A stretch of DNA of 64,000 nucleotides from Candidatus Moraniibacteriota bacterium (GCA_003483065.1 DMWY01000001.1:72606-136605); one strand, 5' to 3'; shown: positions 3,443 through 64,000, counted from the first letter of the stretch. Translations and numbers: made by a program. The notes: generated by a model not told the origin, from the sequence alone.

Positions 3443-3474
3443 ATGTTAATATGTTAAAATGCTAAAATGATTTT
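3443..3474 (+). promoter_or_regulatory. tandem ATGYTAA heptamer array / extended -10-like (TGCTAAAAT) element abutting the def start codon
   Basis: atgttaatatgttaaaatgctaaaat-gatttt-ATG. TGnTAAAAT lies 6 nt before the ATG, which predicts a leaderless or near-leaderless transcript. The same motif family recurs at 56656-56747, 61428-61452 and 61813-61860. Confidence 0.4.
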
Positions 3475-3915
3475 ATGATTTTACCAATAATAACCTATCC
3501 AAATGAAATTCTTCGTCAAAAAGCGAAGAAGATAAAAGAACCAAAAAGTCGAGAAATAAAGGACTTGATTTTGGATATGCTTGAAACTATGGAAGATAGT
3601 GGTAATGCGTTGGGACTAGCTGCTCCGCAGGTGGGACAATCAGTGCAACTTTGTATTATAAAATTAGATGGAAAAACGCATATTCTAATCAACCCAAAAA
3701 TTGCTAGAAAATCTTGGGGAAAAGAAATTTGCGAAGAAGGTTGTTTGTCTTTTCCTGGGAAATTTATCCCAGTTAAGAGACACAAAAAAGTCACCGTGAA
3801 GGCTTTGGACAAAAAAGGAGAAAAAATTGAAATCAAAGCTGAGGGACTTCTCTCGCGAGCTTTGCAACACGAGATTGATCATTTAAATGGGATGCTTTTT
3901 ATAGACAAAAAATAA
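3475..3915 (+). CDS. def: peptide deformylase
   Basis: GLAAPQVG, EGCLSFPG and QHEIDHLNG metal-binding motifs. Confidence 0.9.
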   Translation: MILPIITYPNEILRQKAKKIKEPKSREIKDLILDMLETMEDSGNALGLAAPQVGQSVQLCIIKLDGKTHILINPKIARKSWGKEICEEGCLSFPGKFIPVKRHKKVTVKALDKKGEKIEIKAEGLLSRALQHEIDHLNGMLFIDKK

Positions 3916-4875
3916 ATGGATAATAAAATTAATCCAAGGATAATTTTCATGGGGACGCCGGATTTTGCGGCGAATATTTTGCGCGTGATGCTCAAAGAAA
4001 AACTTGATATCATTTCAGTTTATACTCAGGGTGACAAAAAAGTTGGAAGAAGTCAATCTTTGGAAAAATCGGCGGTTAAAAATGTTGCTGAAGAATATAA
4101 AATAAAAGTTTTCGAACCGAAAAAATTTGATGAAGGTGTTGTGCGTGAAATTGAAAATCAAAAACCAGATTTGATTATTGTTAGTGCTTATGGAAAAATT
4201 TTACCAAAAATTGTTTTGGAAATTCCGCGTTTTGGTGTGATCAATACTCATCCGTCGAGCTTACCAAAATATCGCGGAGCCTCACCAATTCAAAACGCCA
4301 TTCTGAATGGCGAAAAGAAAACGGCAGCAACTATTATGTGTCTAGTGGAAAAAGTTGATGCGGGTGATATTTTGAAACAAGAGGAAGTTGAGATCGGAGA
4401 GTATGAAACTTATCCGGAACTCTCCCAAAGACTTTCAGATATTTCAGCGAGACTTCTTATAGAAATAATCCCACTTTTGATAGCAGGAAAGATAGAGCCT
4501 AAAAAACAAAATGAGAGCGAGGCTACTTTTTGTCAATTAATCAAAAAGGAAGATGGAAAAATCAATTGGGAAGATAAGGCAAGAGACATTTATAATCGTT
4601 TCAGAGCGTTCTATGTTTGGCCTGGAATATTTACCTATTTCGAAAAGGATAATCGAAGTCTACGGTTAAAATTAAATAAGGTTAGTTTGGATGAGCATTC
4701 AAAAGAAAATGATTTTGAAAATGGAAAAGTTTTCGAAGAAAATGAAGTGGTAAAAGTCAAAACTAGCAAAGGTAATATTATTTTAGAAGAAGTTCAATTG
4801 GAAGGAAAAAACAAAATGCAAGCAACGGATTTTGTTCGCGGATATGCGAATTTTGTCGGAAGCGTGCTAAAATAA
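3916..4875 (+). CDS. fmt: methionyl-tRNA formyltransferase
   Basis: N-terminal formyltransferase fold (IIFMGTPDFA, INTHPSSLPKYRGASPIQ) with C-terminal domain. TAAATG overlap with def. Confidence 0.9.
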   Translation: MDNKINPRIIFMGTPDFAANILRVMLKEKLDIISVYTQGDKKVGRSQSLEKSAVKNVAEEYKIKVFEPKKFDEGVVREIENQKPDLIIVSAYGKILPKIVLEIPRFGVINTHPSSLPKYRGASPIQNAILNGEKKTAATIMCLVEKVDAGDILKQEEVEIGEYETYPELSQRLSDISARLLIEIIPLLIAGKIEPKKQNESEATFCQLIKKEDGKINWEDKARDIYNRFRAFYVWPGIFTYFEKDNRSLRLKLNKVSLDEHSKENDFENGKVFEENEVVKVKTSKGNIILEEVQLEGKNKMQATDFVRGYANFVGSVLK

Positions 4876-9522: not shown

Positions 9523-9531
9523 AATTTTCTT

Positions 9532-9564
9532 TACTAATTACTAATTTATTAAGAATATACTAAT
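9532..9564. repeat. TACTAAT heptamer array upstream of obg
   Basis: Three TACTAAT copies at 9532, 9539 and 9558. Related to the TACGAAT arrays at 11045, 54288 and 58173. Confidence 0.5.
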
Positions 9565-9614
9565 GCATTATTGTTTATATACTATACTGCAAATTTATTA
9601 ATTAGTAAAGGAAA

Positions 9615-9666
9615 TAAAAAAAACGCCCCGTGAGGAACGTTAGCAACGTTTTTTCTCCTCACGGGG
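9615..9666 (-). terminator. Rho-independent terminator downstream of yidD
   Basis: 11-bp GC-rich stem CCCCGTGAGGA / TCCTCACGGGG (9626-9636 / 9656-9666) followed on the minus strand by a U-run (A-run 9615-9623 on plus). Confidence 0.6.
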
Positions 9667-9737
9667 TAAAACTTCTTTGATCAGTAATCGCATAGGATCC
9701 CTCCTTTTTTTATGCGTAAAACAGAACTAATAAAATA

Positions 9738-11040: not shown

Positions 11041-11044
11041 TCCT

Positions 11045-11093
11045 TACGAATTACGAATCTATACGAATCTATACGAATGTACGAATTTACGAA
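11045..11093. repeat. TACGAAT heptamer array upstream of cysS
   Basis: Five TACGAAT copies spaced 7-11 bp within 50 bp. Confidence 0.6.
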
Positions 11094-11116
11094 AAATAAG
11101 AAATTTTAAAAAATTT

Positions 11117-27963: not shown

Positions 27964-28437
27964 TTATTGGCAGAGGGTGGTTTTGAAAATCCACCCGGGA
28001 TCTCTTTGAATTTTTATTACTCCGCGAGAGTTGAGTTCTGCGGGGATAGGATGTGTCGTATCAATCGCCCAAAACTGCCATGTTGGGACATTGTTTTTCC
28101 AAACAAGCGCTTTGATTTGGAACTCTGTCCCAGGAGGGACACCGTCCAATTTTCCATAAAATAGCATTTGTTTAGAGACTGGCAACTGATAAGCCGCCAG
28201 TTTTGATTCGCCAACGCCGTAAGCGACTAAAAACATTTGTGGGAGCTTATTTTCCCCTAACACGAAACGATCCCACTCGACCACTTCTTCATCATTACAG
28301 CCCCAAGTGATGAATTTGGAGCCTTCCACCCAAAGGGTCTCAGTAGTTGGGTTATAATTAATATACAGTCCGGTTGCGGAAGATAAGCTGGCGAAAAAAA
28401 ACAAACAAAACACTGCAATAAAAGCATATTTTTTCAT
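27964..28437 (-). CDS. secreted hypothetical protein
   Basis: Cleavable-looking signal peptide MKKYAFIAVFCLFFFASLSSATG. Confidence 0.5.
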   Translation of the reverse strand: MKKYAFIAVFCLFFFASLSSATGLYINYNPTTETLWVEGSKFITWGCNDEEVVEWDRFVLGENKLPQMFLVAYGVGESKLAAYQLPVSKQMLFYGKLDGVPPGTEFQIKALVWKNNVPTWQFWAIDTTHPIPAELNSRGVIKIQRDPGWIFKTTLCQ

Positions 28438-28638
28438 GGTACATCCTCCTTAGAAAAATAATATGTTTTGGCGTTATGCCATTTTTCTAAAAAAACTAAA
28501 AAGTACTATCCCCTCCTTTCAATATTTGATTGTTAAAGAAAATTAAGTTCCTCCTTACTTAATACTACAGCTGAAGCAATAAAACCACAACATAGCATTT
28601 GTGGTGTAATAAAAAATTATAAATTAAATGAAAATAAA

Positions 28639-28674
28639 TAACCCCCGGAAACTCAATAGTGAGTCCGGGGGTTA
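28639..28674 (-). terminator. Rho-independent terminator
   Basis: TAACCCCCGGA-loop-TCCGGGGGTTA followed by a T-rich run on the minus strand. Confidence 0.5.
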
Positions 28675-28724
28675 TCGTTAAAATTATCGCAATCCGACGA
28701 GCCTTTGGCTGGCGGGGTTGAAAG

Positions 28725-29657
28725 TTATGGTTGTCGTCGTCGCCTTGAGCCAAGATGATATAACATTACGCCTAAGAAAATAAGGAGGAGCCACGCCCAC
28801 CATATGTCAAGCGTTTTTTGCCAAAGATTTTTTGACGGCGGAGGCGTGTATTTTGGCAAAGGTGGTGGTGTTACCAGCGATTCGATTTTTTCGAGTTTCG
28901 TAAAAATCGTTTCGCCTTCTTTTTTTGGCTCGCCGATGACCTTTAATTGTTTGGTCTGCTTCTTATGGAGGTCGCCGAGACCTGACGCCTTTTCTTCTAG
29001 TGTCGCTTCTCCGACTCTATCCTGTACCTTTACAATTTCCATGCAGGGGTCGCATTTTTTTGTCTTCGGCCTTTTTACGGTCGGAGTTTTTGCGACTGCT
29101 ACTGAAGTAGCAACTACAGGTGCCGGAGTCGGTGCTACTTGTTGAGCGACTGGAGCGGGAACGACTTTGACAACATTATCACATGGTACATTACCACATG
29201 GCTTTGAGTTGTCCTTAAGTGTTCCGTCATAAACATTCGGGGAATTTCCAGTATACAATACGGCAGTAACCGATTTCGGTTGCATGTCGCCTTGAAATGT
29301 ATACTTGCATCCCCGCGAATCTGAACAATCCGTCAGCAGTCCAGATGCTTTTGAGAAGGGTGTGATCATTTGGTACCACACGCAATCCTCCGAATCCTTC
29401 CAGAGAAAATTAAACGATTCGCCGGGTTGAAGCCGGAATGCTGATGCCGGTCCGATCATACGCGGTTTAATACCGCGAATGTCGTCGTAGATCTCAACAT
29501 TCAAAAATATGGCGCCGGATGGTAATGGCGGAATTGTGACATTGCCATTGCCATCACATGCTGGAATAACATCCACGAGTTTGGGTGTGGCGTCGACCGG
29601 GACAGAGAAAATAAAAATACAAAAAATAATTAATGCGGTAAAGCTGAGTTTTTTCAT
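28725..29657 (-). CDS. secreted surface protein with Pro-rich stalk and C-terminal TM anchor plus RRRRQP tail
   Basis: Signal peptide, Cys-containing domain, PAPVAQQVAPTPAPV linker, then C-terminal ...TPPPLPKYTPPP-TM-RRRRQP. Confidence 0.5.
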   Translation of the reverse strand: MKKLSFTALIIFCIFIFSVPVDATPKLVDVIPACDGNGNVTIPPLPSGAIFLNVEIYDDIRGIKPRMIGPASAFRLQPGESFNFLWKDSEDCVWYQMITPFSKASGLLTDCSDSRGCKYTFQGDMQPKSVTAVLYTGNSPNVYDGTLKDNSKPCGNVPCDNVVKVVPAPVAQQVAPTPAPVVATSVAVAKTPTVKRPKTKKCDPCMEIVKVQDRVGEATLEEKASGLGDLHKKQTKQLKVIGEPKKEGETIFTKLEKIESLVTPPPLPKYTPPPSKNLWQKTLDIWWAWLLLIFLGVMLYHLGSRRRRQP

Positions 29658-29684
29658 GGCGTCCTCCTGCAGGTATTTTTTTGG

Positions 29685-30620
29685 TTAATTTATTAATTCA
29701 AGCCGAACAAACAGTCCAGCCGACCAACTGTTTTTTTCCAGCTGATCATCGGAGTTAAGGTTATAGTCAAAAAGCGGTCCAAATATCAACCACTCACGAT
29801 AACGCGCCTCGGCGTTTAATCCGAGATTTTTCCGGTTGTTTTCCGGCGTCATCCCGTATTGTACACCGAGTCGGCCCGCCCAGTCAGGAGAAAAATCTTT
29901 GTGGATTTTCCCACCAAAAGTGAGCGAAGTTCGATCAGAAATTTTATCCCCAGCCCAAGTGGACTGAAAGTTGCCATTTCCATCAAACCAACCTTCAGAA
30001 TAAATTATCCATAACCATTCCGGCTGAAATTGCCGAAGATACTCAAGATAATATCCAGGAATAAGATGATCTTCAGTCTTTTTATATCCCGAAGTTTTAT
30101 TTTCTCCTTCATTATTTTCCCAAATCAACCGACCATTCAGTTGAATTTGGTGCGGATATCCCGTATCTGTTTTTCCGGTCCAAATAAAACCGGCTTGAGG
30201 GCCAATCCCCCAATTATTCCACTCATAGTCTTGGTCGGTTTCGCCAAAGTCGCCTCGGGCAAAAATTCCGATCCTAGGAGTGAGATATCCATTGCCAATT
30301 TGGGTGCTGAGGTTTCGAAAGGAAAGTTTATATTCCCCATACCACCAGTCTCCCTTGGATCCGGCGTTTGAATTATTCCAAATACCAGTTCCAACGTCCA
30401 GTTCGTGTTCAAAATTTTGACTGGGCTTCTGTTCCGGAGTTGAATAAGGGTAAGAATTTAACCCTCCAGTAAGAATGTAGTTTTCCGAGCTCATCTGGCT
30501 CGGGTTGGATGTTTGATTGTCGTCGGCCATGGCCATGGCTGTAATAAAACAAGCCTGGCCACTCACGGAACTAACTGTGAGCAACATAATTGCCAATGTA
30601 AGTAATAATGATTTTTTCAC
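29685..30620 (-). CDS. secreted beta-rich protein with outer-membrane-barrel-like alternating pattern
   Basis: Signal peptide MKKSLLLTLAIMLLTVSSVSGQA (GTG start with AGGAGA 8 nt upstream), Gly/aromatic-rich alternating strands and a C-terminal hydrophobic strand. Confidence 0.5.
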   Translation of the reverse strand: MKKSLLLTLAIMLLTVSSVSGQACFITAMAMADDNQTSNPSQMSSENYILTGGLNSYPYSTPEQKPSQNFEHELDVGTGIWNNSNAGSKGDWWYGEYKLSFRNLSTQIGNGYLTPRIGIFARGDFGETDQDYEWNNWGIGPQAGFIWTGKTDTGYPHQIQLNGRLIWENNEGENKTSGYKKTEDHLIPGYYLEYLRQFQPEWLWIIYSEGWFDGNGNFQSTWAGDKISDRTSLTFGGKIHKDFSPDWAGRLGVQYGMTPENNRKNLGLNAEARYREWLIFGPLFDYNLNSDDQLEKNSWSAGLFVRLELIN

Positions 30621-36228: not shown

Positions 36229-36267
36229 GTATGCGAATAGCGCGTCTGCGAATGCGCACATGCGAAT
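36229..36267. repeat. GC-rich intergenic repeat (GTATGCGAATAGCGCG...CATGCGAAT)
   Basis: Shares blocks with 17869-17950 and with the in-gene segment 59292-59330. Confidence 0.5.
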
Positions 36268-45822: not shown

Positions 45823-45940
45823 GGAGTTTTGAATTTTGGGCATTCACCCCTGACCCCTCTGCCCAAAATCCAAAACAAAAATCAAATTTTCTATTAGAAT
45901 AAGCAAAGTTTGTGCTAATAAAATAGAAGACAAAAAAATA

Positions 45941-46030
45941 CATCAGCTAACACGGCATATCTGGTTCAGAAATTTTGCACATATAATAAAATAAGGAAGG
46001 CAAAACTTCTTCTCCCAAATTGCGCTGTGG
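45941..46030. repeat. ~95-bp structured intergenic repeat, copy 1
   Basis: CATCAGCTAACACGGCATATCTGGTTCAGAAATTTTGC-loop(AAGGAAGG)-GCAAAACTTCTTCTCCCAAAT. Copies at 46920-47010 and 47780-47922 show compensatory changes in the hairpin arms. Confidence 0.6.
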
Positions 46031-46773: not shown

Positions 46774-46919
46774 CTTCCTTCCTCCTGTTGTTGGATTTAA
46801 TGTGCTATTTGACGGGAAATTAGCGTTCAAAGTAGTATAGCAGAAAACGCTTATCCTGTCAAGACCACGAAAAAAAATTCAAAAGGGCTTTTTAATAAGG
46901 AGTATATTTTTGAACAAGA

Positions 46920-47010
46920 CATCGTTTAACAAAGAATATCTGGTTCAAAAAATTTGCCGCAGTTAAAACTAAAAGGAGGGCAAATTTTTCTCTCCCAAAT
47001 CCCGCACTTT
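46920..47010. repeat. ~95-bp structured intergenic repeat, copy 2
   Basis: CATCGTTTAACAAAGAATATCTGGTTCAAAAAATTTGCC-loop(AAGGAGGG)-GGCAAATTTTTCTCTCCCAAAT. Confidence 0.6.
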
Positions 47011-47733: not shown

Positions 47734-47779
47734 GATTGCCAAAAATTCTTTATTTTCTAGGAAAGGAAATTTTTAGTTT

Positions 47780-47922
47780 CATCGCCTAACAAGTTGTATC
47801 AGGTTCCAGAAATTTGCCTCAATTATATTATTAAGGAGTGCAAATTTCTTCCACCCAAATTTTTGCCTTCCTTTTCTTTTTATATTACAATAAGGAAAGA
47901 AGGCAAAAACTTCTGATACAAC
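47780..47922. repeat. ~95-bp structured intergenic repeat, copy 3 (composite, bounded by a 10-bp terminal inverted repeat)
   Basis: GTTGTATCAG (47793-47802) ... CTGATACAAC (47913-47922). The interior carries one forward copy of the element plus an inverted partial copy (TTTTGCCTTCCTT / AAGGAAAGAAGGCAAAA). Confidence 0.55.
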
Positions 47923-54283: not shown

Positions 54284-54287
54284 AAAT

Positions 54288-54330
54288 TACGAATTACTAA
54301 TCTTGTACGAATGTACGAATAATTACTTAC
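54288..54330. repeat. TACGAAT heptamer array
   Basis: TACGAAT at 54288, 54306 and 54314 plus TACTAAT, immediately upstream of the GT4 start at 54283. Confidence 0.55.
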
Positions 54331-55551: not shown

Positions 55552-56655
55552 TTATTTAACAAGGCGAAATTCCTTCCATTCCTTATCAATATATTCCTTT
55601 ATTCTAGCCTTAAATATCTCTTTGTCAAATTTAAAAACTCTTTGCCTGATATAATCCGGGTCATAATCAGAATTTTTGAATTTTCTAACTGCTTCAATTA
55701 AATCCTCAGCTGTTTGATGCGCAAAAAACACTCCTGTTTTCCCTTCTTCCATATGTTCAAGAATGTCGCCACCATCATAGGCAATAAGCGGTGTGCCTGA
55801 AGCCATAGCCTCAATAGCAGTAAGTCCAAAATCTTCTTCTTGTGGAAAGATAAACGCTTGGCAACGAGAAAAATATTTTTGCAATTCTTCGTCGCTAACT
55901 CGTCCAAGAATTTTAATATTTGGCCCAGCCATTTTTTTAAGTCTTTCCATTTCTGGTCCACGCCCAAGAATTCTAAGTGGTAATCCTAATTTATTGAAAG
56001 CTTCGATAGCAATATCAAAACGTTTATACGCCATCAAACGCCCGGCAATCAAAAAATAATCATCTTTTTCGCGACTAATTTTGAAATTATTAACATTCAC
56101 CGGCGGATTTATCACAACACTTCCTCGTCTGAAATATTTTTTTATCCGGCGCGAAACAAAAAAAGAATTAGCAATTATTTTATCCGGTCGTTCGGCGCTT
56201 ACTCGATCCCAAATCCGAATATAATTCATAAAAAATGGCACGAGCTTTTTGATAAAATTAGGAAAATAAAAATCGCGATTGTATTTTTGGCAATCATCCC
56301 AAGCAAAACGCATTGGCGTGTGCATATAACAAATATGCAAAGTTTTTGGCCCCGTAATTATGCCTTTGGCAAAACTAGAAGAATCAGATAATACAATATC
56401 ATAATCAGAAAAATCAAATTGTTCAATGGCAAAAGGCATAAATTGCGGAAAAATTCGATGCCTTCCCACCGCAAAAGGGATTTTTTGCAAAAAAGAAGTC
56501 TTGATTTTTTTGTCCGCAAAACTGCCATGCATCAGTTTTTTGCTATAAACAAGGGTGTATATTGGCGCATAGGGAAAAAGCTCACAAAAAGCTTCTAGCA
56601 CTTTTTCCGCTCCCCCATTTTGAACAAGATAATCGTGGACTAAAGCAATCTTCAT
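55552..56655 (-). CDS. glycosyltransferase family 4
   Basis: EDFGLTAIEAMASGTPLIA GT4 signature. Confidence 0.85.
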   Translation of the reverse strand: MKIALVHDYLVQNGGAEKVLEAFCELFPYAPIYTLVYSKKLMHGSFADKKIKTSFLQKIPFAVGRHRIFPQFMPFAIEQFDFSDYDIVLSDSSSFAKGIITGPKTLHICYMHTPMRFAWDDCQKYNRDFYFPNFIKKLVPFFMNYIRIWDRVSAERPDKIIANSFFVSRRIKKYFRRGSVVINPPVNVNNFKISREKDDYFLIAGRLMAYKRFDIAIEAFNKLGLPLRILGRGPEMERLKKMAGPNIKILGRVSDEELQKYFSRCQAFIFPQEEDFGLTAIEAMASGTPLIAYDGGDILEHMEEGKTGVFFAHQTAEDLIEAVRKFKNSDYDPDYIRQRVFKFDKEIFKARIKEYIDKEWKEFRLVK

Positions 56656-56747
56656 TTTAGCATATTAGCATTTTAGCATATTAGCATCAGTATTATACGC
56701 ATTTTATTTTTGTTAAAATGTTAATAAGCTAATATGTTAAAATGATC
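56656..56747 (-). promoter_or_regulatory. ATGCTAA heptamer array / tandem extended -10-like elements abutting the GT4 start codon
   Basis: The minus strand reads ...TATAATACTG ATGCTAATATGCTAAAATGCTAATATGCTAAAATG|AAG. A 14-mer unit (TGCTAATATGCTAAAA) is repeated twice, and the opposite-orientation motif TTTTTGTTAAAATGTTAA is also present. Confidence 0.45.
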
Positions 56748-58163
56748 CTAAAGATTCTTTCTCTTTCTAAATAAAACTCCTACTGTTTTCAAACAAATTT
56801 GAATATCCAACCACAATGACCAATTTTCAATGTAGAATAAATCTAATTTATATTCATCTTCAAAATCCAAGTCTGATCGACCAGACACCTGAGCCATTCC
56901 AGTGACACCAGGCTTAATCGTGAGTAATCGGCGGTGATATTCCATATATTTTTCCACTTCTCTTTTTTGATGCGGGCGTGGACCGACTAAACTCATTGTG
57001 CCAAAAAGAACATTAAAAAATTGTGGCAATTCATCAAGAGAATATTTTTCAATAAATTTTCCTACTCGCGTTTTTCTTGGATCATCTTTTATCTTGTAGA
57101 GCGGACCTTTGCGTATACTTTGTTTTTCAATTAAATTTTGTTCTAATTTCAAAGCCTCCTCTAATTTAGGATTCTCCTTTGAAATACAAAATTCATTTTT
57201 AAAGTAGCGAAATTTATACATAAAAAATTTCTCAGTATCACTACCAATTCTTTCGTTTTTATAAATTATCGGACCCTCACTATCCAGCTTCACTGCGATA
57301 GCAGTGATAATCAAAATCGGTGAAGTGAGAATTATTCCAAAAAGTGAAGCTATGATGTCAAAAACGCGCTTCAAAATTCTACCCCAACCATCCAATGGAG
57401 TACTTTGCACTTCAATCAAGGGCTCTCCGTTTAGAACGCTGATTTCAAACTTGGATGTCTGCAGACTATTAGGAATATATTTAAATTTAATATTATGAAT
57501 GGAAGAATAGTCAATTAATTTTTCTTGTTCCGCATCGGTAATTGACGGCTCACAAAGAATTATTTCGTCGATACCTCGTTGTTCCTTGATTTCCTTGATC
57601 ACGTGCAGGCTGGCGGTTTCGATTTGATCGATTATCTTGTAACCTAAATTTTTATTGCGTCTGATTATTTTGCAAATAGCATTTATTTTTCCATTTTTTC
57701 CAATTAGAAGTACTCGATGCACACCAATTTCTCTTGAGCGAAGCAACCATTTTTGAAAAAGCTGAATGAGGTAGCGCGCAGCGATAACATAAAAAACCCC
57801 CAATCCCCAAGCGGCCAAAATCACAAAACGCGAAGAGAACCATTCGCGCTTCAAAAATATTGTCACGATAATAATCACCAGTCCAATGGAAGTCGCGGAA
57901 AAAACCTTGATTGTTTCTTTCCAAAATTTTCGCGTAGCACGAATATTATATAATCCCTCTAGGGCATAAATCAAAATAAAAAAGGGAGCTACGATAAAAA
58001 TAATTTTTATATAACTTTCAAAAGAAAAACTATACAATTTTGGTTTGAGCGCCAAAAGTTCTGGCACATTTCGAATAGCAAAAGCCGAGATAGCGGCAAG
58101 CACTATCATCAAAAAATCCACCGGAACCTGCATAGCACTAAAAAAAAGTTCTGATCTCTTCAT
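56748..58163 (-). CDS. polyprenyl-phosphate sugar phosphotransferase (WbaP/WcaJ-type priming glycosyltransferase)
   Basis: N-terminal TM helices plus C-terminal Bac_transf domain (KFRYF...DELPQFFNVLFGTMSLVGPRP). Confidence 0.85.
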   Translation of the reverse strand: MKRSELFFSAMQVPVDFLMIVLAAISAFAIRNVPELLALKPKLYSFSFESYIKIIFIVAPFFILIYALEGLYNIRATRKFWKETIKVFSATSIGLVIIIVTIFLKREWFSSRFVILAAWGLGVFYVIAARYLIQLFQKWLLRSREIGVHRVLLIGKNGKINAICKIIRRNKNLGYKIIDQIETASLHVIKEIKEQRGIDEIILCEPSITDAEQEKLIDYSSIHNIKFKYIPNSLQTSKFEISVLNGEPLIEVQSTPLDGWGRILKRVFDIIASLFGIILTSPILIITAIAVKLDSEGPIIYKNERIGSDTEKFFMYKFRYFKNEFCISKENPKLEEALKLEQNLIEKQSIRKGPLYKIKDDPRKTRVGKFIEKYSLDELPQFFNVLFGTMSLVGPRPHQKREVEKYMEYHRRLLTIKPGVTGMAQVSGRSDLDFEDEYKLDLFYIENWSLWLDIQICLKTVGVLFRKRKNL

Positions 58164-58172
58164 GTTATTCTT

Positions 58173-58205
58173 TACGAATTACTAATCTCTTACTAATATA
58201 CTAAT
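58173..58205. repeat. TACGAAT/TACTAAT heptamer array upstream of the priming transferase
   Basis: TACGAAT at 58173; TACTAAT at 58180, 58191 and 58199. Confidence 0.5.
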
Positions 58206-58296
58206 TTTAATCAAATTTAATCAGTGGTGGAAAAATAATAAACTCACATTAGTATATTCGTATAAAATTCGTAATTGGTAAAGATTTTGAGCATAT

Positions 58297-58647
58297 ATCA
58301 AGGCAAATCTATAAGCCGGATTTTGTCGAGAATGATCATTTATCTAGTCCCGATATTACTATCGGGATCAAGCGGTACTTCTTATTCTTACTAGTGTAGA
58401 ACAAGACACGACCTTGCATCCAGGTAAGGATTTAGCCGTTTCACCCCAATATTACTATTGGATTCGCCCCGCCCTTTATAAATAAAAAGCTGGGTGCTCA
58501 ACCTTTCGGTTTCGCACGTCTCTGCTCGCACCTCTTAGATTGCTCTAGATGGGTGTTACCCACTACCCTTTCCGCCTCTTCGGCGGATAAATGTCCGGAC
58601 TTTCCTCTCTGACTTTACGTCAGGGCGATCATTCAATTTGCCTTGAT
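58297..58647 (-). ncRNA. rnpB: RNase P RNA (bacterial type A)
   Basis: The minus strand reads GAGGAAAGTCCGGAC (P4 5' strand), GGGTAACACCC, AGAGCAA and the 3' P4 strand ACAAAATCCGGCTTATAG. P1 pairs 5' CAAGGCAAAT with 3' ATTTGCCTTG. ~351 nt, ORF-free and GC-enriched. Confidence 0.8.
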
Positions 58648-58787: not shown

Positions 58788-61427
58788 TTAAGAAAGCTTT
58801 TTTAGATTATCAAGCAAATCTTTTTGCGATTTTAATTTCTCCCTGTATTCAGCAAGTTTAATCTTATTATTTTCCACAATTTCTTTCGGCGCGCTGGCGA
58901 GGAAATTTTTGTTGGCGAGAAGGGCGCTGTTTTTGGCAATCAAATTTTCCAGATTGGTAATTTCTTTGTAAAAATTTTTCTTTTCTTTTTCCACATCAAT
59001 CAATTCCGCAATATCTAAAACTATTTTCAAATCTTTTCCGGAAATTTCAATCCCCTGTTTTTTTGCATCAGAAAATTTAACTCGTCCTAATTTTTCAATT
59101 ATCTCTTGATTTTTGAGTTTTTTTGCATACGCCTCAATGATTTCACTTGGCGCAATACGATAACTAGACCGAATATTTCGAATTTTACCGATTATTTCCT
59201 GCAAGTTTTGAAATTCTTTTTCCGCTTTTTTATTAATTAGTTTTTTGTCCGATACCGGCCACTTTTCAACCATTAATATTTTGACTTTTTTATTCGTAGC
59301 ATTCGCATGTATTCGCAGATTCGCATCGCCATATATTTTTTCCGTCACAAACGGCATAAACGGATGCCAAAGTTTTAATATTTTCTCCAAAACATATCCC
59401 AAAACCTTGTCATTTTTTTCAAGTTTGTGAATTTCAAGGTACCATGAAGCCAGATCATCCCAAGTAAATTTAATGAGAATATTTTCTGCCATGGCAATAT
59501 TTTTATTCTCCAGCATTTTTGATGCTTCCAAAATCGCCTGATTAACTCGGGAAACAATCCAACTATCCGCCAAACTTTTCAAATCATGTCTAGAAATTTT
59601 TTCTTCTAGTTTAAAATTTTCATTTGAGCTGAAACTATAGCGATAGATATTCCAAAGCTTGGTCACGAAATTTCGATATTTTTCTATTTTTTCTTCATAG
59701 AGTCGCGTATCAAGTCCGGGGGTTGTATCAGTAATAAGACTCATACGAAGCGCATCCGCTCCATACTTCTCAATCATTTGCAAGGGATCAACTCCATTGC
59801 CTTTAGATTTTGACATCTTAAGACCGTCTTTATCTCTAATCAGTCCAGTGAAAAATAAATTCTTAAACGGCACCTTACCGGTTCGATATAGTCCCATCAT
59901 AATCATCTTAGAAGCCCAGAAAAAAAGTAGGTCGCGTCCTGTAACCATCATTTCGGTTGAATAAAAATCTTTATAGTCTTTGCCTTTTGGATAACCCAGA
60001 GTTGTATATGGCCATTGACCAGAAGAAAACCAAGTGTCAAAAGTATCCTGATCTTGAATCAATTCTGCTCCCTTGCATTTCGGACATTTTTTTGGCTTTT
60101 CAATTGAAACAATGTAATTCTCCTCTCCACATTTTTCACAATACCATACTGGAATTTGCGGTCCCCACCAAATTTGGCGCGAAATACACCAATCATGCAA
60201 ACCCGAAAACCATTGCGTCATTATTTTTCCAAAACTTTTCGGATAAACTTCAATCTTCCCTGTTTTGATTGCTTTCAAAGATTCTTTTTTTAGCGAATAC
60301 TTTTTTGCATCCACATTCACAAACCATTGCTTGGAAATTAGAGGCTCAATCGTTTCCTTGCAACGCTCACAAATTGATTTATTGATTTCATTCTCTTCTA
60401 TTTTTTCAATAAGGCCAAACTCAGTCAAATCGCGTACAATATTTTCCCGTGCCTCTTCAACTTTTTGCCCAACATATTTCCCGCCTAATTTTGTAATCTC
60501 GGCTTTTTCATTAATCACTTGAATTTCTTGGAGTTTATGATCCTTGCCAATTTGCCAGTCCAGCGGATCATGCGCCGGAGTAATTTTCACCGCGCCTGTA
60601 CCAAATTCCATTTCCATTCTTCTGTCCGAAATAATTGGAATTTCTCGATTTTGCAAAGGCAAGATAACGATTTTTCCCACTAATTTTTCAAAGCGCTTGT
60701 CTTTTGGATTAACTGCCACGGCCGTATCACCCAGCATCGTTTCTGGACGCGTCGTTGCAACCGTGATAAATTGCTTGGAATCTTTCAAGGGATATTTTAT
60801 ATAGTATAATTTTCCGGCTGTTTTCTTGTGAAGCACTTCCACATCTGAAAGTGCAGTGGAACATCTAGGGCACCAGTTGATTATTCTTTCTCCGCGATAA
60901 ATCATTCCGTCCTTTTCCATCTTGACAAAAGTTTCCAGTGCCCGAGAAAGAACATCTGGATCGAGTGTGAATTTTTCTCGCGACCAATCAGCGCTAATAC
61001 CAATTTTCTTTTCTTGCGCGCGCATATAGTTCGATCGATCAATACAAAAGTCATAAATCTCCTTGTAGAATTTTTCTCGCCCTAAATCATATCGGGAAAT
61101 CCCCCGTTCTGCTTTGATTTTTTTTTCATAAACTACTTGCGACTGAATTCCGGCGTGATCTTTTCCTGGAAAAAGCAAAACTTTCTCCCCTTTCATGCGA
61201 TGATAGCGACCAAAAATATCCATCACGGTGTAACCTGAAGCATGCCCAAGATGAAGCTCTCCATTAGCATTCGGTGGTGGCAAAATATTGCAATATTTTT
61301 TTCGATTTTTATCTTCAGCCCAAGGCTGACAGGTATCCGGGTTGAAAAACCCACTCTCCTCCCAGAGCTTATATATCTCGTCCTCATATTTATTCGCTTC
61401 GTATGTTTTTGAAATTTCCCTAATCAT
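58788..61427 (-). CDS. valS: valyl-tRNA synthetase
   Basis: PPPNANGELHLGHA (HIGH), KMSKSKGN, editing and anticodon-binding domains, C-terminal coiled coil. Confidence 0.9.
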   Translation of the reverse strand: MIREISKTYEANKYEDEIYKLWEESGFFNPDTCQPWAEDKNRKKYCNILPPPNANGELHLGHASGYTVMDIFGRYHRMKGEKVLLFPGKDHAGIQSQVVYEKKIKAERGISRYDLGREKFYKEIYDFCIDRSNYMRAQEKKIGISADWSREKFTLDPDVLSRALETFVKMEKDGMIYRGERIINWCPRCSTALSDVEVLHKKTAGKLYYIKYPLKDSKQFITVATTRPETMLGDTAVAVNPKDKRFEKLVGKIVILPLQNREIPIISDRRMEMEFGTGAVKITPAHDPLDWQIGKDHKLQEIQVINEKAEITKLGGKYVGQKVEEARENIVRDLTEFGLIEKIEENEINKSICERCKETIEPLISKQWFVNVDAKKYSLKKESLKAIKTGKIEVYPKSFGKIMTQWFSGLHDWCISRQIWWGPQIPVWYCEKCGEENYIVSIEKPKKCPKCKGAELIQDQDTFDTWFSSGQWPYTTLGYPKGKDYKDFYSTEMMVTGRDLLFFWASKMIMMGLYRTGKVPFKNLFFTGLIRDKDGLKMSKSKGNGVDPLQMIEKYGADALRMSLITDTTPGLDTRLYEEKIEKYRNFVTKLWNIYRYSFSSNENFKLEEKISRHDLKSLADSWIVSRVNQAILEASKMLENKNIAMAENILIKFTWDDLASWYLEIHKLEKNDKVLGYVLEKILKLWHPFMPFVTEKIYGDANLRIHANATNKKVKILMVEKWPVSDKKLINKKAEKEFQNLQEIIGKIRNIRSSYRIAPSEIIEAYAKKLKNQEIIEKLGRVKFSDAKKQGIEISGKDLKIVLDIAELIDVEKEKKNFYKEITNLENLIAKNSALLANKNFLASAPKEIVENNKIKLAEYREKLKSQKDLLDNLKKLS
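59292..59330. repeat. ATTCGCA/TGCGAAT triple repeat inside valS (in-frame)
   Basis: ATTCGTAGC ATTCGCATGT ATTCGCAGATTCGCATCGCC. Encodes GDANLRIHANATN. Resembles the intergenic repeats at 17869-17950 and 36229-36267 (CTGCGAAT..ACATGCGAAT). Confidence 0.45.
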
Positions 61428-61452
61428 CTTAACATTTTAGCATATTAACATT
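61428..61452 (-). promoter_or_regulatory. ATGYTAA heptamer array / extended -10-like element abutting the valS start codon
   Basis: The minus strand reads GGAAATGTTAAAATGTTAATATGCTAAAATGTTAAG|ATG. Confidence 0.4.
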
Positions 61453-61812
61453 TTAACATTTCCTTATTGATTCCATTGATTTCCATAGCATGGCACCAAT
61501 TTCGTCTGCCAACTTGATTGATTTTTTATAGTCATTGTCAGTATAATATTTTTCAACTAAAGCAAAATGCAGGAGATACATCGATTCTTTTAAAGATCCG
61601 TATGATATTTCCCAGAAATTTAGTTTAACCATTTGCTTTTTTCTAGCAAAACCTTCTAAGTAATTCAGAATTACAGACAAAGACGACCGCCTTAATTGAG
61701 AAGTTACTCCATACAATTCTTCTTTCGGAAAATTCTTAGTAATCCTATAGCACAAATGTGCATATTCATCCATTTTAATTTTTAATTGATGCGGAAAATC
61801 ATTATTGGTCAT
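61453..61812 (-). CDS. four-helix-bundle protein (TIGR02436 / 23S rRNA intervening-sequence protein family; DGR Avd-like fold)
   Basis: YRITKNFPKEELYGVTSQLRRSSLSVILNYLEGFARK...ISYGSLKESMYLL signature of this family. Confidence 0.75.
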   Translation of the reverse strand: MTNNDFPHQLKIKMDEYAHLCYRITKNFPKEELYGVTSQLRRSSLSVILNYLEGFARKKQMVKLNFWEISYGSLKESMYLLHFALVEKYYTDNDYKKSIKLADEIGAMLWKSMESIRKC

Positions 61813-61860
61813 GTTTATTTTTGTTAAAATGCTAAAATGTTAGCATGCTAAAATGTTTTT
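61813..61860. promoter_or_regulatory. ATGCTAA/TTAGCAT heptamer array between the four-helix-bundle gene and pheT
   Basis: TTTATTTTTGTTAAAATGCTAAAATGTTAGCATGCTAAAATG; shares TTTATTTTTGTTAAAATG with 56706-56730. Confidence 0.4.
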
Positions 61861-64000
61861 TTATTTTCTAATCTCCAACCCTAATTCTTTTTCCAATCCT
61901 GCGACAATTTTTCCCATCACTTCATCCACTTCTTTGTTTTCTAGTGTTCGCTCTGGCGCGCCAAATTCAATGTGATAAGCGAAGCTCGTTACTCCGTCCT
62001 TAAAAAAGACATCAAACATAGAAACATTCAAGACTAAATCTCCGCCGATTTTCTTGATTAGTTTTTGAATTTCAATGGCTTTGGTTTCGCCTTTGGCAAG
62101 CATGGAAATGTCCCGGGTGATGGTTGGAAATTTTTGCAAAGCTTTATAAACAAGTTCTTTTTGAGAAATTTTCAAAAGTTTTTCCGTGTCCAATTCACAA
62201 ACTGCCACTCTTTTTCCAATTTTATATTTTCCCAAAACCAAAGGATTAATCTCCCCTATCATTCCGATTTTTTCGCCATCAACCAAAATCTCTGCACTTC
62301 TTCCTGCGTGAGCAAGATGATTTTTTGAAAGCTTAACTTCGTTGAATGAAATCGAATTTTCATCAACGCTAATTTTCTCCAACAAATTTTCTGTTGCGCC
62401 TTTTATACTATAAAAAGTTTCCGCATTTTTGCTTGCCCCGTGTTTCGCTTCAGCGAAATTTACGGGGTCCTTTTCTAAAACTTGCGCCATAACGAACATT
62501 CTTTTTTCTTCTGTTCCTGTCATTCTGAACTCGTTTCGGAATCCAGATCCTGAAACAAGTTCAGGATGACAAAGGTAAACTTTTCCAATTTCAAAAATAT
62601 TCAAACTTTCAAAATTCTTGAGGTTAGTTTTAATGTTTTTCAAAATATTTGGAATAAGACTCACTCGAACATATTTTTGATCCGGATTCATTGGACTAGA
62701 AAGTTCAAAATGTTTCACGTTATCCAAGGCGCAATTCTTAGCATCAATTTCAGAATAGAAAGAATAATTATACATTTCATCAAATCCAAAACCAACCGAA
62801 ATTTCTCCTAATCTTCGCTCAAAAGACAAAACTTCATTTATCTTAGCGGGAATAATAGGTTCAACAAGCGGACGCGGTTCAATTTTTTCATATCCCCAAA
62901 TCCGTCCAATCTCTTCAATCAAATCTTCTTGAGTTTTAAGATCAACTCTAAACGTAGGAACAATACACACTACCTTATATGGTTGAATGGTAGTGCCGAT
63001 TCCTAATAAATTTAATATTCTTATGATTTCTTTTTTTGGAATTATTTCTCCTAAAAGAGAGTTTACATATTCCAAATCTAATTTTATTTTACAAGGCTTA
63101 ATTTTATTTGGATAAACATCAATCACTCCTTCGAGCTTTGCGTCAGCGGTATGCTCCAAAACTTCTATGATTCTAACAATAGCTTTTTCGGCTAAATTTG
63201 GATCAATCTCTTTTTCAAAACGATCAGATGATTCAGTTTTCACGCCCAGTCTTGTTCTTGAGCGTCTAATATTAACGGCATCAAAATTAGCCGCTTCCAA
63301 AATTATTGTCTTAGTATTTTCGTTTATACCTGAATCTTTCCCACCCATAATTCCAGCTAACGCCAACGGCGTTTCACCATTAGTAATAAGTAAATCCTGA
63401 TCTGATAATTTTAATTTAGTTTCATCCAATAATTCCATCTCTTCATTCTCCTTAGCTTTTCTTACTACTATTTGGATTTTATTTGTTTCTTGTTTCTTGT
63501 TTCTTGTTTCTTGGCCTGAGATTTTGGAAAAATCGAAGGCATGCATTGGTTGCCCAAGTTCCAGCATCACATAATTAGTTGCGTCAACAACATTGTTAAT
63601 CGGACGAATTCCAGAAGCTTCCAATCTTTGCTTCATCCAACTTGGCGAATCTTTAATTTCTACATTTTCCATTACTGCGCCGATATAGCGAGAACAAAGC
63701 TTTCTATCTTCAATTTTTACAATTAATTTTTTGGATTTTTTATTAGGCAATTTCAGTCCATCAAAATCATATTCAAAATTCTTATTTTCCAGCACTGAAA
63801 TTTCTCGCGCCACTCCAACATGACTGGTTGCATCGTGCGCTCGATCTGGCAAAACTTTTATTTCAAAAATCGTGTCATCTTCCACGCCCAAATATTTTTT
63901 AGCCGGCTCGCCAATTTTAGCTTTAGAATCTAGAATAAAAATTCCACTATGATCAGCTCCAAGTCCTAACTCGTCTAACGCACAAAGCATACCAAAAGAT
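61861..64000 (-). CDS. pheT: phenylalanyl-tRNA synthetase beta subunit (5' end beyond the window)
   Basis: B3/B4, B5, catalytic-like and C-terminal anticodon-binding (FDV) domains. The N-terminal tRNA-binding domain lies beyond position 64000. Confidence 0.9.
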   Translation of the reverse strand, partial: SFGMLCALDELGLGADHSGIFILDSKAKIGEPAKKYLGVEDDTIFEIKVLPDRAHDATSHVGVAREISVLENKNFEYDFDGLKLPNKKSKKLIVKIEDRKLCSRYIGAVMENVEIKDSPSWMKQRLEASGIRPINNVVDATNYVMLELGQPMHAFDFSKISGQETRNKKQETNKIQIVVRKAKENEEMELLDETKLKLSDQDLLITNGETPLALAGIMGGKDSGINENTKTIILEAANFDAVNIRRSRTRLGVKTESSDRFEKEIDPNLAEKAIVRIIEVLEHTADAKLEGVIDVYPNKIKPCKIKLDLEYVNSLLGEIIPKKEIIRILNLLGIGTTIQPYKVVCIVPTFRVDLKTQEDLIEEIGRIWGYEKIEPRPLVEPIIPAKINEVLSFERRLGEISVGFGFDEMYNYSFYSEIDAKNCALDNVKHFELSSPMNPDQKYVRVSLIPNILKNIKTNLKNFESLNIFEIGKVYLCHPELVSGSGFRNEFRMTGTEEKRMFVMAQVLEKDPVNFAEAKHGASKNAETFYSIKGATENLLEKISVDENSISFNEVKLSKNHLAHAGRSAEILVDGEKIGMIGEINPLVLGKYKIGKRVAVCELDTEKLLKISQKELVYKALQKFPTITRDISMLAKGETKAIEIQKLIKKIGGDLVLNVSMFDVFFKDGVTSFAYHIEFGAPERTLENKEVDEVMGKIVAGLEKELGLEIRK
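63485..63512. repeat. (GTTTCTT)x4 heptanucleotide tandem repeat inside pheT
   Basis: Four exact tandem copies; encodes QETRNKKQETN on the minus strand. Confidence 0.7.

Follow-up and report, generated by a model that had tools for sequence, protein, structure and literature searches.

Tandem arrays of a short AT-rich repeat lie flush against start codons in the 64,000-nucleotide stretch of DNA that we analyzed (the window, by which we mean that whole stretch), and on balance, with confidence a little better than even, we regard them as the arms of palindromic intergenic cassettes that resemble the intervening sequences (IVSs) of 23S rRNA, the gene-proximal arm probably doubling as a leaderless extended –10 promoter. 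This reading draws on the inverted pairing and predicted folding of the arrays, on their distribution among Patescibacteria, on a fixed register between repeat units and gene starts, on the presence or absence of a whole cassette among relatives, and on the flanking of PF05635 genes by inverted arms.

An octamer that tiles into extended –10 boxes

The window comes from an uncultivated groundwater bacterium whose closest protein relatives bear the name Candidatus Moranbacteria, which makes this a Patescibacteria (CPR) genome. Pfam searches of the window, whose G+C content is ~35%, identified priA, def, fmt, two GT4 genes, a sugar transferase gene, valS, a gene for a PF05635 '23S rRNA IVP' protein, and pheT, and bore out the gene identities given in a preliminary description of this DNA (def, GT4, valS, and the PF05635 four-helix bundle). 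RNase P RNA was located at 58296–58644, and no rRNA was found within the 64-kb window. The same description had reported arrays of a heptamer, ATGYTAA, at four places. AT-rich short tandem repeats are present at all four, but Tandem Repeats Finder detected five arrays in the window rather than four and assigned a period of 8 to every one of them, which refutes the heptamer. The bare heptamer is not enriched, with 33 occurrences in the window against 29.8 expected, whereas the extended –10-like motif TGYTAAWAT, to which attention had also been drawn, occurs 21 times against an expectation of 6.8 ± 2.7 (none of 100 shuffles reached 21), and 8 copies of the two-unit pattern were found where 0 were expected. 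The octamer tandem rather than the heptamer is therefore the signal. The unit reads ATGYTAAW, and its tiled copies give overlapping extended –10 boxes, TGYTAAWAT. Each tile is thus a self-overlapping extended –10 element plus a G, in which the final T of TGnTAAWAT doubles as the T of the next TG; as a result of this sharing, every unit contains an ATG and a TAA, and an array offers starts and stops in all three frames. Near-verbatim reuse of the motif at far-apart sites, a further early claim, is borne out by TGTTAAAATGCTAAAATG, which occurs exactly at 3452–3469 and 61822–61839. The arrays, two single boxes, and the features to which they belong are the following.

1401–1409, + strand: one extended –10 box, TGATACAAT, 7 nt upstream of the priA start (ATG at 1416)
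3443–3474, + strand: solitary array in forward orientation; the priA stop (3440) precedes it and the def ATG (3475) follows
3475–3915, + strand: def, peptide deformylase, with a Pfam PF01327 match from residue 3 and its start in the array register
4865–4873, + strand: one box, TGCTAAAAT, within the 3'-terminal part of fmt and 7 nt from the ATG of a rhodanese gene (4880)
56653–56687, – strand: four perfect units that form the forward arm at the GT4 gene (55552–56655), whose start codon is the terminal ATG of the arm
56688–56710: 23-nt loop of this ORF-less hairpin
56711–56745, + strand: inverted partner arm, with TGTTAAAAT at 56711 and 56735 and degenerate units between
61419–61860, – strand: whole cassette of 442 bp (inverted arm, IVP gene, forward arm) at the pheT-valS junction
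61425–61461, – strand: forward arm, abutting valS (58788–61427)
61453–61812, – strand: four-helix-bundle gene, PF05635 23S_rRNA_IVP / S23p, bAvd-like (Pfam 1.2e-24), the cargo of the cassette loop
61822–61855, + strand: inverted partner arm, flanked by the pheT stop (61861) and the start of the four-helix-bundle gene (61812)

The arrays next to def (+), GT4 (–), and valS (–) lie on the coding strand, whereas those at 56711–56745 and 61822–61855 lie on the + strand, where all neighboring genes are on the – strand. An inverted-repeat search paired 56711–56745 with 56653–56687 and 61822–61855 with 61425–61461. The window therefore holds two paired copies and one solitary arm in 64 kb, or terminal inverted repeats in several copies, as MITEs do. 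At the GT4 gene, the inverted arm is directed into the sugar transferase gene (56748–58163, – strand) at its stop codon, and the two arms are predicted to fold into a hairpin of –20.9 kcal/mol (z –3.0). The boxes at 61822–61855, which had been placed upstream of the four-helix-bundle gene, in fact point away from it and into the 3' end of pheT, because their strand is opposite to that of the flanking genes.

A fixed distance from the –10 box to the start codon

The last box had been said to end 0–8 nt before the ATG, which proved imprecise: at def, GT4, and valS alike, one hexamer lies exactly 6 nt before the ATG, with 7 nt from its last T to the A of the ATG and the box at –15 to –7. In the def array, composed of units ATGTTAAT, ATGTTAAA, and ATGCTAAA and the degenerate unit ATGATTTT, the + strand boxes are TGTTAATAT at 3444–3452, TGTTAAAAT at 3452–3460, and TGCTAAAAT at 3460–3468, and it is the final hexamer T at 3468 that stands 7 nt from the A of the ATG. 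On the – strand, the GT4 box TGCTAATAT (56662–56670) ends 7 nt from the A at 56655, and the valS arm has boxes at 61450–61458, 61442–61450, and 61434–61442, with the hexamer T at 61434 again 7 nt from the A at 61427; TGCTAAAAT and TGCTAATAT are the box types at def, GT4, and valS. At GT4 and valS, another box or half-box extends over the ATG itself, and the stop codon of the four-helix-bundle gene (61453–61455) falls within the first unit of the valS arm. With the single boxes before priA and the rhodanese gene, five genes have a box at that exact offset, compared to 0.058 expected from the box density of the window.

As reported earlier, def, GT4, valS, and the four-helix-bundle gene have no Shine-Dalgarno motif upstream; only 6 of the 54 window genes have an SD-like motif, and other window genes have TATAAT-like boxes 20–40 nt upstream. 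Leaderless genes have a Pribnow box 6–8 nt from the start codon (PMC6028130), and about half of Parcubacteria are reported to lack an anti-SD motif (PMC9297842). At def, GT4, and valS, we found TGnTAtaAT with T–12, A–11, and T–7, a coding-strand hexamer 6–8 nt from the start, and no SD motif, but no such distance exists for 56711–56745 and 61822–61855, which are on the opposite strand. The proposal of extended –10 boxes driving leaderless transcription fits the three forward arrays and not the two opposite-strand arrays, and it leaves unexplained the upstream inverted partners, the position of every examined PF05635 gene between two inverted arms (some with units that are not –10-like), and the presence or absence of a hairpin among close strains. 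Boxes farther upstream also bear on this proposal. A perfect TATAAT lies on the – strand in the loop of the GT4 hairpin, 37 nt upstream of the GT4 ATG, and a TATCAT upstream of def stops 7 nt short of the first array ATG; either could make the adjacent array a 5' leader instead of a promoter.

Consensus scans for canonical –35/–10 promoters and for intrinsic terminators left the arrays unflagged, and in the two-hexamer sigma-70 scan this is because the arrays have no –35. A canonical GC-rich terminator occurs at 9624–9668, so hairpins are not the sole terminator type in this DNA.

Arrays in other Patescibacteria

A scan for two units plus an ATG, with one genome per species, returned at least 118 stretches, at least 65 of them from about 39 Patescibacteria assemblies and often several per genome. 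The lineages among the matches listed are Moranbacteria, Parcubacteria/Paceibacterota, and Nealson-, Falkow-, and Kuenenbacteria; LBQR01, JAHILZ01, and JAXHLG01 have several loci each among the matches listed, whose remaining stretches are either scattered single matches or, in Bacteroidota, long (GCTAATAT)n microsatellites. Every strict array (88/88, with 66 Patescibacteria sequences made up of the 65 matches listed and the window) lies outside ORFs of at least 90 aa, and extended arrays among the matches listed have 3–6 units, most often 4 and up to 9. Within 150 nt, an inverted partner is present upstream of 30 of 80 arrays and downstream of 2 of 80 among the matches listed, which defines the layout as inverted arm, loop, and forward arm. 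For the paired arms among the matches listed, loops span 15–127 nt, flanking genes are mostly co-directional, the inverted arm mostly begins 1–18 nt past the stop codon of the upstream gene, and the forward arm mostly ends at the next start codon. An inverted arm also directly follows the 3' end of 6 of the 23 tRNAs among the matches listed.

Gene starts keep step with the arrays. Among the matches listed, 28 of 38 genes within 64 nt past an array start in the 8-nt register (binomial p ~7e-18), 31 of the 38 have no alternative in-frame ATG in the next 25 codons, and the N-termini look canonical. From these N-termini, we take the genes behind arrays to be those for enolase, L10, L11, S20, TrpS, Pth, TsaD, ClpB, and others. 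When 28 arrays among the matches listed were aligned by start codon, T–15, G–14, T–12, A–11, A–10, A–8, and T–7 were conserved at 96–100% and positions –13 and –9 varied, the peak from –15 to –7 being partly an effect of ascertaining these loci by their arrays. The invariant unit positions T–15, G–14, T–12, A–11, and T–7 are those that sigma-70 reads. Four tRNAs among the matches listed provide a comparison in which ORF calls are not involved, as the mature 5' end of each lies 8 nt past the end of a –10 hexamer.

tRNA-Phe, L014: hexamer in an array
tRNA-Val, L014, and a tRNA of L116: hexamer in single boxes
tRNA-Pro, L101: hexamer in a degenerate array; ARAGORN call only, below the Rfam threshold, and for that reason weaker evidence

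Several other candidate features of the arrays were set aside. A conserved MITE core was rejected because the loops of 17 paired arrays among the matches listed are heterogeneous; TCAGTATTA, common to two loops, was too weak for use as a core, and no clear case of a target-site duplication or a conserved loop sequence emerged from these 17. A T-tract at the head of the array, of the kind found in Campylobacter-type promoters, occurs in only ~15–26 of 87 arrays among the matches listed and does not define them. An 'ATGA' overlap between the stop of an upstream mini-ORF and the real start was present at 3 of 3 window genes and, by eye, at ~11 of 19 elsewhere, which is near the base rate. Among the matches listed, an Rfam search for non-coding RNA genes downstream of arrays gave only tRNAs.

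A PF05635 cassette at the pheT-valS junction

In the window, the PF05635 gene is enclosed by two arms, of which the inverted one (61822–61855) is 90% complementary over 31 nt to 61431–61461, and in the – strand RNA of the cassette the arms are predicted to pair as a 31-bp stem in both the MFE and centroid structures (z –3.5). Six relatives lack this cassette, those in which pheT adjoins valS being 75–81% identical in DNA, and L138 and L219 have it at the same site, a sporadic distribution like that of IVSs. In one of the six, L148, blastn aligned pheT to its stop and valS from codon 3 with nothing between, and 61419–61860 is missing; in L147, L148, L155, and L156, the pheT coding sequence reaches to 2–4 nt before the valS ATG, and the other two, L129 and L131, have ~600 nt of other sequence at the junction. 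We also examined 80 ValS-anchored loci from diverse Patescibacteria (425 kb), a sample unbiased for arrays, and found arrays only in the nearest relative, L138. Their absence at the other orthologous ValS sites indicates that the arrays are lineage-restricted and turn over fast. L138 keeps the entire block, with 0 and 1 substitutions in the ~76 nt of the two arms compared to ~9% divergence in the IVP coding sequence; the inverted arm is 100% conserved, and the one substitution in the forward arm falls at the 'n' of a box. Compared by eye for compensatory changes, the arms of the window, L138, and L219 offer too few informative differences to judge, with one A·C mismatch in L219.

Homologues of the window IVP that are ~70% identical occur in many Patescibacteria, mostly on short contigs. 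We picked PF05635 homologues by protein similarity alone and then examined their genomic contexts. At all 8 of the 8 loci beyond the window, arms of short tandem repeats enclose the gene, inverted on its upstream side and forward on its downstream side, as listed here.

L219/L220: pheT-IVP-valS; arm units ATGYTAAW
L221 and L222: identical IVP protein and arms next to two different upstream genes; arm units ATGYTAAW
L223: between pilin-like genes; arm units ATGYTAAW
L117: 9 inverted and ~20 forward units; ATGYTAAW
L138: the pheT-valS site of the window; arm units ATGYTAAW
L118: arm units ATGYTTTA, not –10-like
L143: directly downstream of valS; arm units GTATCTAGT / ATACAAAAT, not –10-like

Copies at sites other than pheT-valS follow T2SSF or epimerase genes or have pilin genes on both sides. 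The called starts of the pilin-like genes of L221 and L223 are inside the arm, and both proteins consequently begin MLKCL; the start called in L223 is the arm's first ATG and lacks a box at –15 to –7. A general association in the other direction was rejected, as a local jackhmmer search of the array-ascertained loci found PF05635 only at L117 and L118, which means that the majority of arrays lack an ORF. PF05635 genes come with arms, but arrays do not in general come with PF05635 genes.

The solitary array upstream of def

The def array has the same sequence in 10 independent assemblies of the same strain from different samples; no variation in unit copy number was seen across these 10 assemblies, and gene callers agree on the def start in all of them. 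In L209/L210, which have 97%-identical Def, the array contains 42 extra nt that consist of an inverted arm and a loop, and the TGTTAA direct repeat that bounds this indel is the sole candidate for a target duplication. More distant def relatives have quite different intergenic repeats, yet TAAAAT lies 6–8 nt before the ATG. Def homologues are listed at 148–160 aa in the protein collection, compared to 146 aa here, and the start codons of the longer ones may have been called inside such repeats, a matter of consequence for annotation as each array unit carries an ATG.

Proposed mechanism and alternative explanations

We propose that Moranbacteria and other Patescibacteria have a family of small palindromic cassettes in which the arrays are the arms and which would insert into tiny intergenic gaps with the order upstream gene stop, inverted arm, loop, forward arm, and ATG of the next gene, and with a loop that may be short (56653–56745) or may contain a PF05635/S23p gene (61419–61860). 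Both ends of such a cassette face outward, as its arms are inverted repeats. The gene-proximal arm would most likely serve as a –35-independent promoter, with its box at –15 to –7 and transcription beginning at or next to the AUG, and a leaderless promoter in this position would restore expression of a gene that insertion had cut off from its operon. The distal arm, in mirror image, would be directed at the 3' end of the preceding gene, and in read-through RNA the distal and proximal arms would form a long stem that might act as an RNase III substrate or as an insulator, in the manner of rRNA IVSs. Solitary arrays such as that of def would be remnants left after deletion of the other arm and the loop. 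What the analysis shows is the anatomy of the cassettes, their distribution, the register, the insertion polymorphism, the link to PF05635 genes, and the predicted fold; from these we infer promoter activity, transcription from the AUG, processing of the RNA, and a mechanism of mobility.

A serious rival, which we nonetheless consider rather improbable, assigns the cassettes to RNA alone. The arrays would be only the stems of IVS-like selfish stem-loops, their likeness to –10 boxes would be incidental to an AT-rich repeat, RNase III would cut the stem in read-through RNA, and the downstream gene would be translated from a processed, short, SD-less leader. Architecture, size, and S23p cargo do match the IVS of Coxiella, which is excised by RNase III; genes flanking the cassettes are all co-directional, so that read-through could occur; and inverted arms lie directly 3' of genes and tRNAs. 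Cassettes exist with arm units that are not –10-like (L118 and L143), and the same layout recurs in a second family of hairpins in the window (family 2, TCTTTAC...GTAAAGA), which are flush to start codons without –10 geometry. These arms and hairpins show that neither flushness nor a hairpin needs a promoter, and flushness is in part trivial because the cassettes fill gaps that measure 0–4 nt in relatives. It is for these reasons, and because of the possible upstream –10 boxes at GT4 and def, that we keep the purely RNA-level explanation in play. What it does not explain is the exact 8-nt start register (28 of 38 genes among the matches listed), the coincidence of invariant unit positions with sigma contacts and of variable ones with –13 and –9, the persistence of a partnerless def arm unchanged in 10 assemblies, and the single boxes 7 nt before priA and the rhodanese gene. 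The reverse simplification, which we consider distinctly unlikely, would keep the promoter and dispense with any mobile or IVS-like element: tandem extended –10 promoters, with a unit that combines –10 box and start codon, would have grown in place by 8-bp slippage, and inverted copies would be divergent or antisense promoters. The geometry and register suit this idea, as do the heterogeneous loops, the lack of an obvious target duplication, and the fast turnover implied by arrays that are not kept at orthologous sites, and it follows directly from the sequence that slippage by whole units keeps the spacing from –10 to ATG. Against it, inverted arms enclose every PF05635 gene examined and one cassette recurs unchanged in a second context, a 442-bp block has been inserted at the pheT-valS junction, a hairpin indel within the def array separates 97%-identical strains, inverted partners are biased upstream and mostly face the 3' ends of genes rather than divergent genes, and the 10 assemblies showed no copy-number variation at def.

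Two regulatory explanations seem to us far less probable still. Octamers might be operators that bind an abundant regulator or nucleoid protein next to gene starts, a very improbable reading despite the reiterated and inverted short motifs typical of operators and the placement of family-2 inverted repeats on both sides of a –10-like region that precedes obg. Against it, the arrays serve housekeeping genes that are unrelated to one another (def, valS, and those for ribosomal proteins, enolase, and tRNAs). With a period of 8 bp, neighboring sites would not share a face of the helix, our analysis gave no candidate protein, and the unit differs by lineage as the architecture stays constant. Contingency repeats that tune expression through unit number, as in phase-variable promoters, would account for short tandem repeats in a promoter region, one of them before a surface-polysaccharide GT4 gene. 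We give this explanation the least credence: phase variation was rejected on the identity of the def array in 10 assemblies, most target genes are essential housekeeping genes, and a change by whole units leaves the ATG spacing unaltered.

A broader extension of the cassette model, which we advance only tentatively and think doubtful, is that IVS-type selfish stem-loops, which are not known so far outside 23S rRNA genes, have colonized protein-coding operons and tRNA clusters across Patescibacteria, with arms built from tiles of an extended –10 box plus an ATG. Because the arms are such tiles, each insertion would bring an RNA-processing or insulating hairpin, a leaderless promoter, and a start codon. 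If this extension is true, the cassette is a portable 'operon splitter', and some insertions donate a start codon and first residues to the downstream protein (MLKCL... in two pilin-like genes). It would also extend the 'intervening sequence' concept of 23S rRNA and the enigmatic S23p/PF05635 family to mRNA operons, offer streamlined genomes with near-zero spacers a way to tolerate insertions, and make the 8-bp tile a very compact natural design of a –35-independent leaderless promoter. Patescibacteria (CPR) represent a large share of bacterial diversity, are almost all uncultivated, and have promoters and translation start signals that are essentially unmapped; a recurring promoter and start module in dozens of their genomes would be a testable handle on gene expression in SD-poor organisms. 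Our literature search on CPR lineages combined with leaderless, Shine-Dalgarno, or promoter found no description of such arrays and no report of leaderless promoters in Patescibacteria. Taken singly, S23p IVS elements, leaderless genes, and extended –10 promoters are all familiar; the 8-bp tiled –10/ATG unit as the arms of IVS-like cassettes in protein-coding operons appears to be new.

Comparison with known systems

Correia/NEMIS elements of Neisseria, and MITE- or REP-like palindromes, are short and intergenic and are present or absent between strains; Correia/NEMIS elements have terminal inverted repeats with outward –10-like sequences, and their read-through hairpins are RNase III substrates. 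The cassettes differ from Correia/NEMIS in having no conserved core or loop and no clear target-site duplication, in arms that are internally tandem-repetitive with a variable number of units, in the PF05635 gene that some of them carry, and in a unit sequence that depends on lineage. Contingency loci have short tandem repeats in promoters, such as the 7-bp repeats upstream of the H. influenzae hmw genes. The arrays are like these in having tandem repeats of 7–8 bp between promoter and start codon but differ in showing no length polymorphism in 10 assemblies (def), in serving housekeeping genes, and in a spacing unaffected by gain or loss of units.

As in the leaderless promoters of Actinobacteria and Deinococcus (GeneMarkS-2 'group C'; PMC6028130), a –10 hexamer lies 6–8 nt before the start with no Shine-Dalgarno motif, and as in extended –10 (TGn) promoters, a TG is found at –15/–14 with no recognizable –35. 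Unlike either, the array box is reiterated 3–6 times, and up to 9, in an overlapping 8-bp tile with ATG and TAA, and the array boxes occur in Patescibacteria, within inverted-repeat cassettes.

Likeness to the S23p IVSs of Coxiella burnetii and Leptospira (PMC4990558) extends over several features. The IVS in Coxiella 23S rRNA is a selfish element of 428–444 nt with an S23p (PF05635) ORF in its loop and terminal inverted repeats that pair as a 28-bp stem, in the middle of which RNase III cuts (PMC4990558). An insert of ~430–445 nt compares with the 442-bp window cassette, a PF05635 four-helix-bundle ORF occupies the loop of both, terminal inverted repeats form a stem of ~28–31 bp (by predicted fold for the window cassette), both are sporadic among relatives, and both have short ORF-less versions, as in Salmonella-type IVSs. 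RNase III excision is known for Coxiella, and the cassette is likened to it from sequence and predicted fold. Classical IVSs, however, are in helix 9, 25, or 45 of 23S rRNA, whereas the cassettes described here lie between protein-coding genes or after tRNAs; the arms of IVSs are unique sequence, whereas those of the cassettes are tandem 8-bp tiles that adjoin start codons and read as extended –10 boxes.

Second-family palindromes and other repeats

A second family of intergenic palindromes was observed in the window, at these positions:

9528-9612, second-family palindrome
11044-11094, second-family palindrome
54287-54320, second-family palindrome
58169-58284, second-family palindrome, between the RNase P RNA and sugar transferase genes

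The ends of these elements read TCTTTAC...GTAAAGA, their arms are composed of TTACGAAT/TTACTAAT units, and the copy beside the RNase P RNA gene gave a fold of -28.8 kcal/mol (z -4.3). In each of three genes, obg, the sugar transferase gene, and a GT4 gene, a second-family element was positioned 5-7 nt before the start codon, and the family was also present upstream of cysS as tandem TACGAAT units. In a strain with a 97%-identical Def (loci L209/L210), an element of this family separated def from fmt, and variants of this element occurred at loci L213-L216. The def-fmt junction of the window lacked a second-family element, and the def stop codon was adjacent to the fmt ATG.

Additional repeats were found in the window:

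36231-36267, three TGCGAAT-containing repeats (period ~14) in the gap separating the DUF5656 gene from clpB
45934-45978, 46913-46957, and 47773-47817, three copies of the 45-nt repeat AAAAATACATCAGCTAACACGGCATATCTGGTTCAGAAATTTTGC
63483-63513, 4.4 perfect tandem copies of the 7-bp unit TTGTTTC, within the pheT coding region

Neither the DUF5656 gene nor clpB shares its strand with the TGCGAAT repeats, which may represent a third variant of the repeat class to which the palindromic families belong. The copies of the 45-nt repeat are spaced ~900 nt apart in a gene-poor region (45.8-48.5 kb), each with a small ORF shortly upstream.

Terminator and Shine-Dalgarno sequences

9624-9668, - strand, canonical intrinsic terminator downstream of yidD

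This terminator combines a GC-rich stem (CCCCGTGAGGA...TCCTCACGGGG) with a downstream run of T residues, and thus ordinary terminators are also in use in this genome. Strong GGAGG-type Shine-Dalgarno sequences precede only three genes in the window, clustered at 27964-30620, where G+C content reaches its maximum for the window (0.43 vs about 0.35); this block could be foreign.

Array matches and PF05635 cassettes in other assemblies

Among the matches listed, Bacteroidota MAGs (L045, L048, L038, L058, L090, and others) contained long microsatellite-like (ATGCTAAT)n / (GTGCTAAT)n runs, the longest with at least 8 perfect units, which fit the array search pattern (two units plus ATG) but do not display the context seen in Patescibacteria. 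A tRNA-rich region of a Moranbacteria contig contained a further feature:

L014 6222-6424, group I intron (Rfam RF00028, 69 bits)

At L221 and L223, loci chosen for their PF05635 homologues, the called start codons of pilin-like (N_methyl) genes (from 1567 and 1562, respectively) fall within a forward arm. Both proteins begin with MLKCL, followed by G|FS(L/I)(V/I)E, and the repeat appears to have donated the start codon and first residues. The PF05635 proteins at 1201-1551 of L221 and L222, loci in two assemblies from one study, are identical, as are their flanking arms, and the upstream genes differ (T2SSF vs epimerase). Across many CPR lineages, PF05635 homologues share about 70% identity, and most of them reside on short contigs, a pattern to be expected of mobile DNA present in multiple copies.
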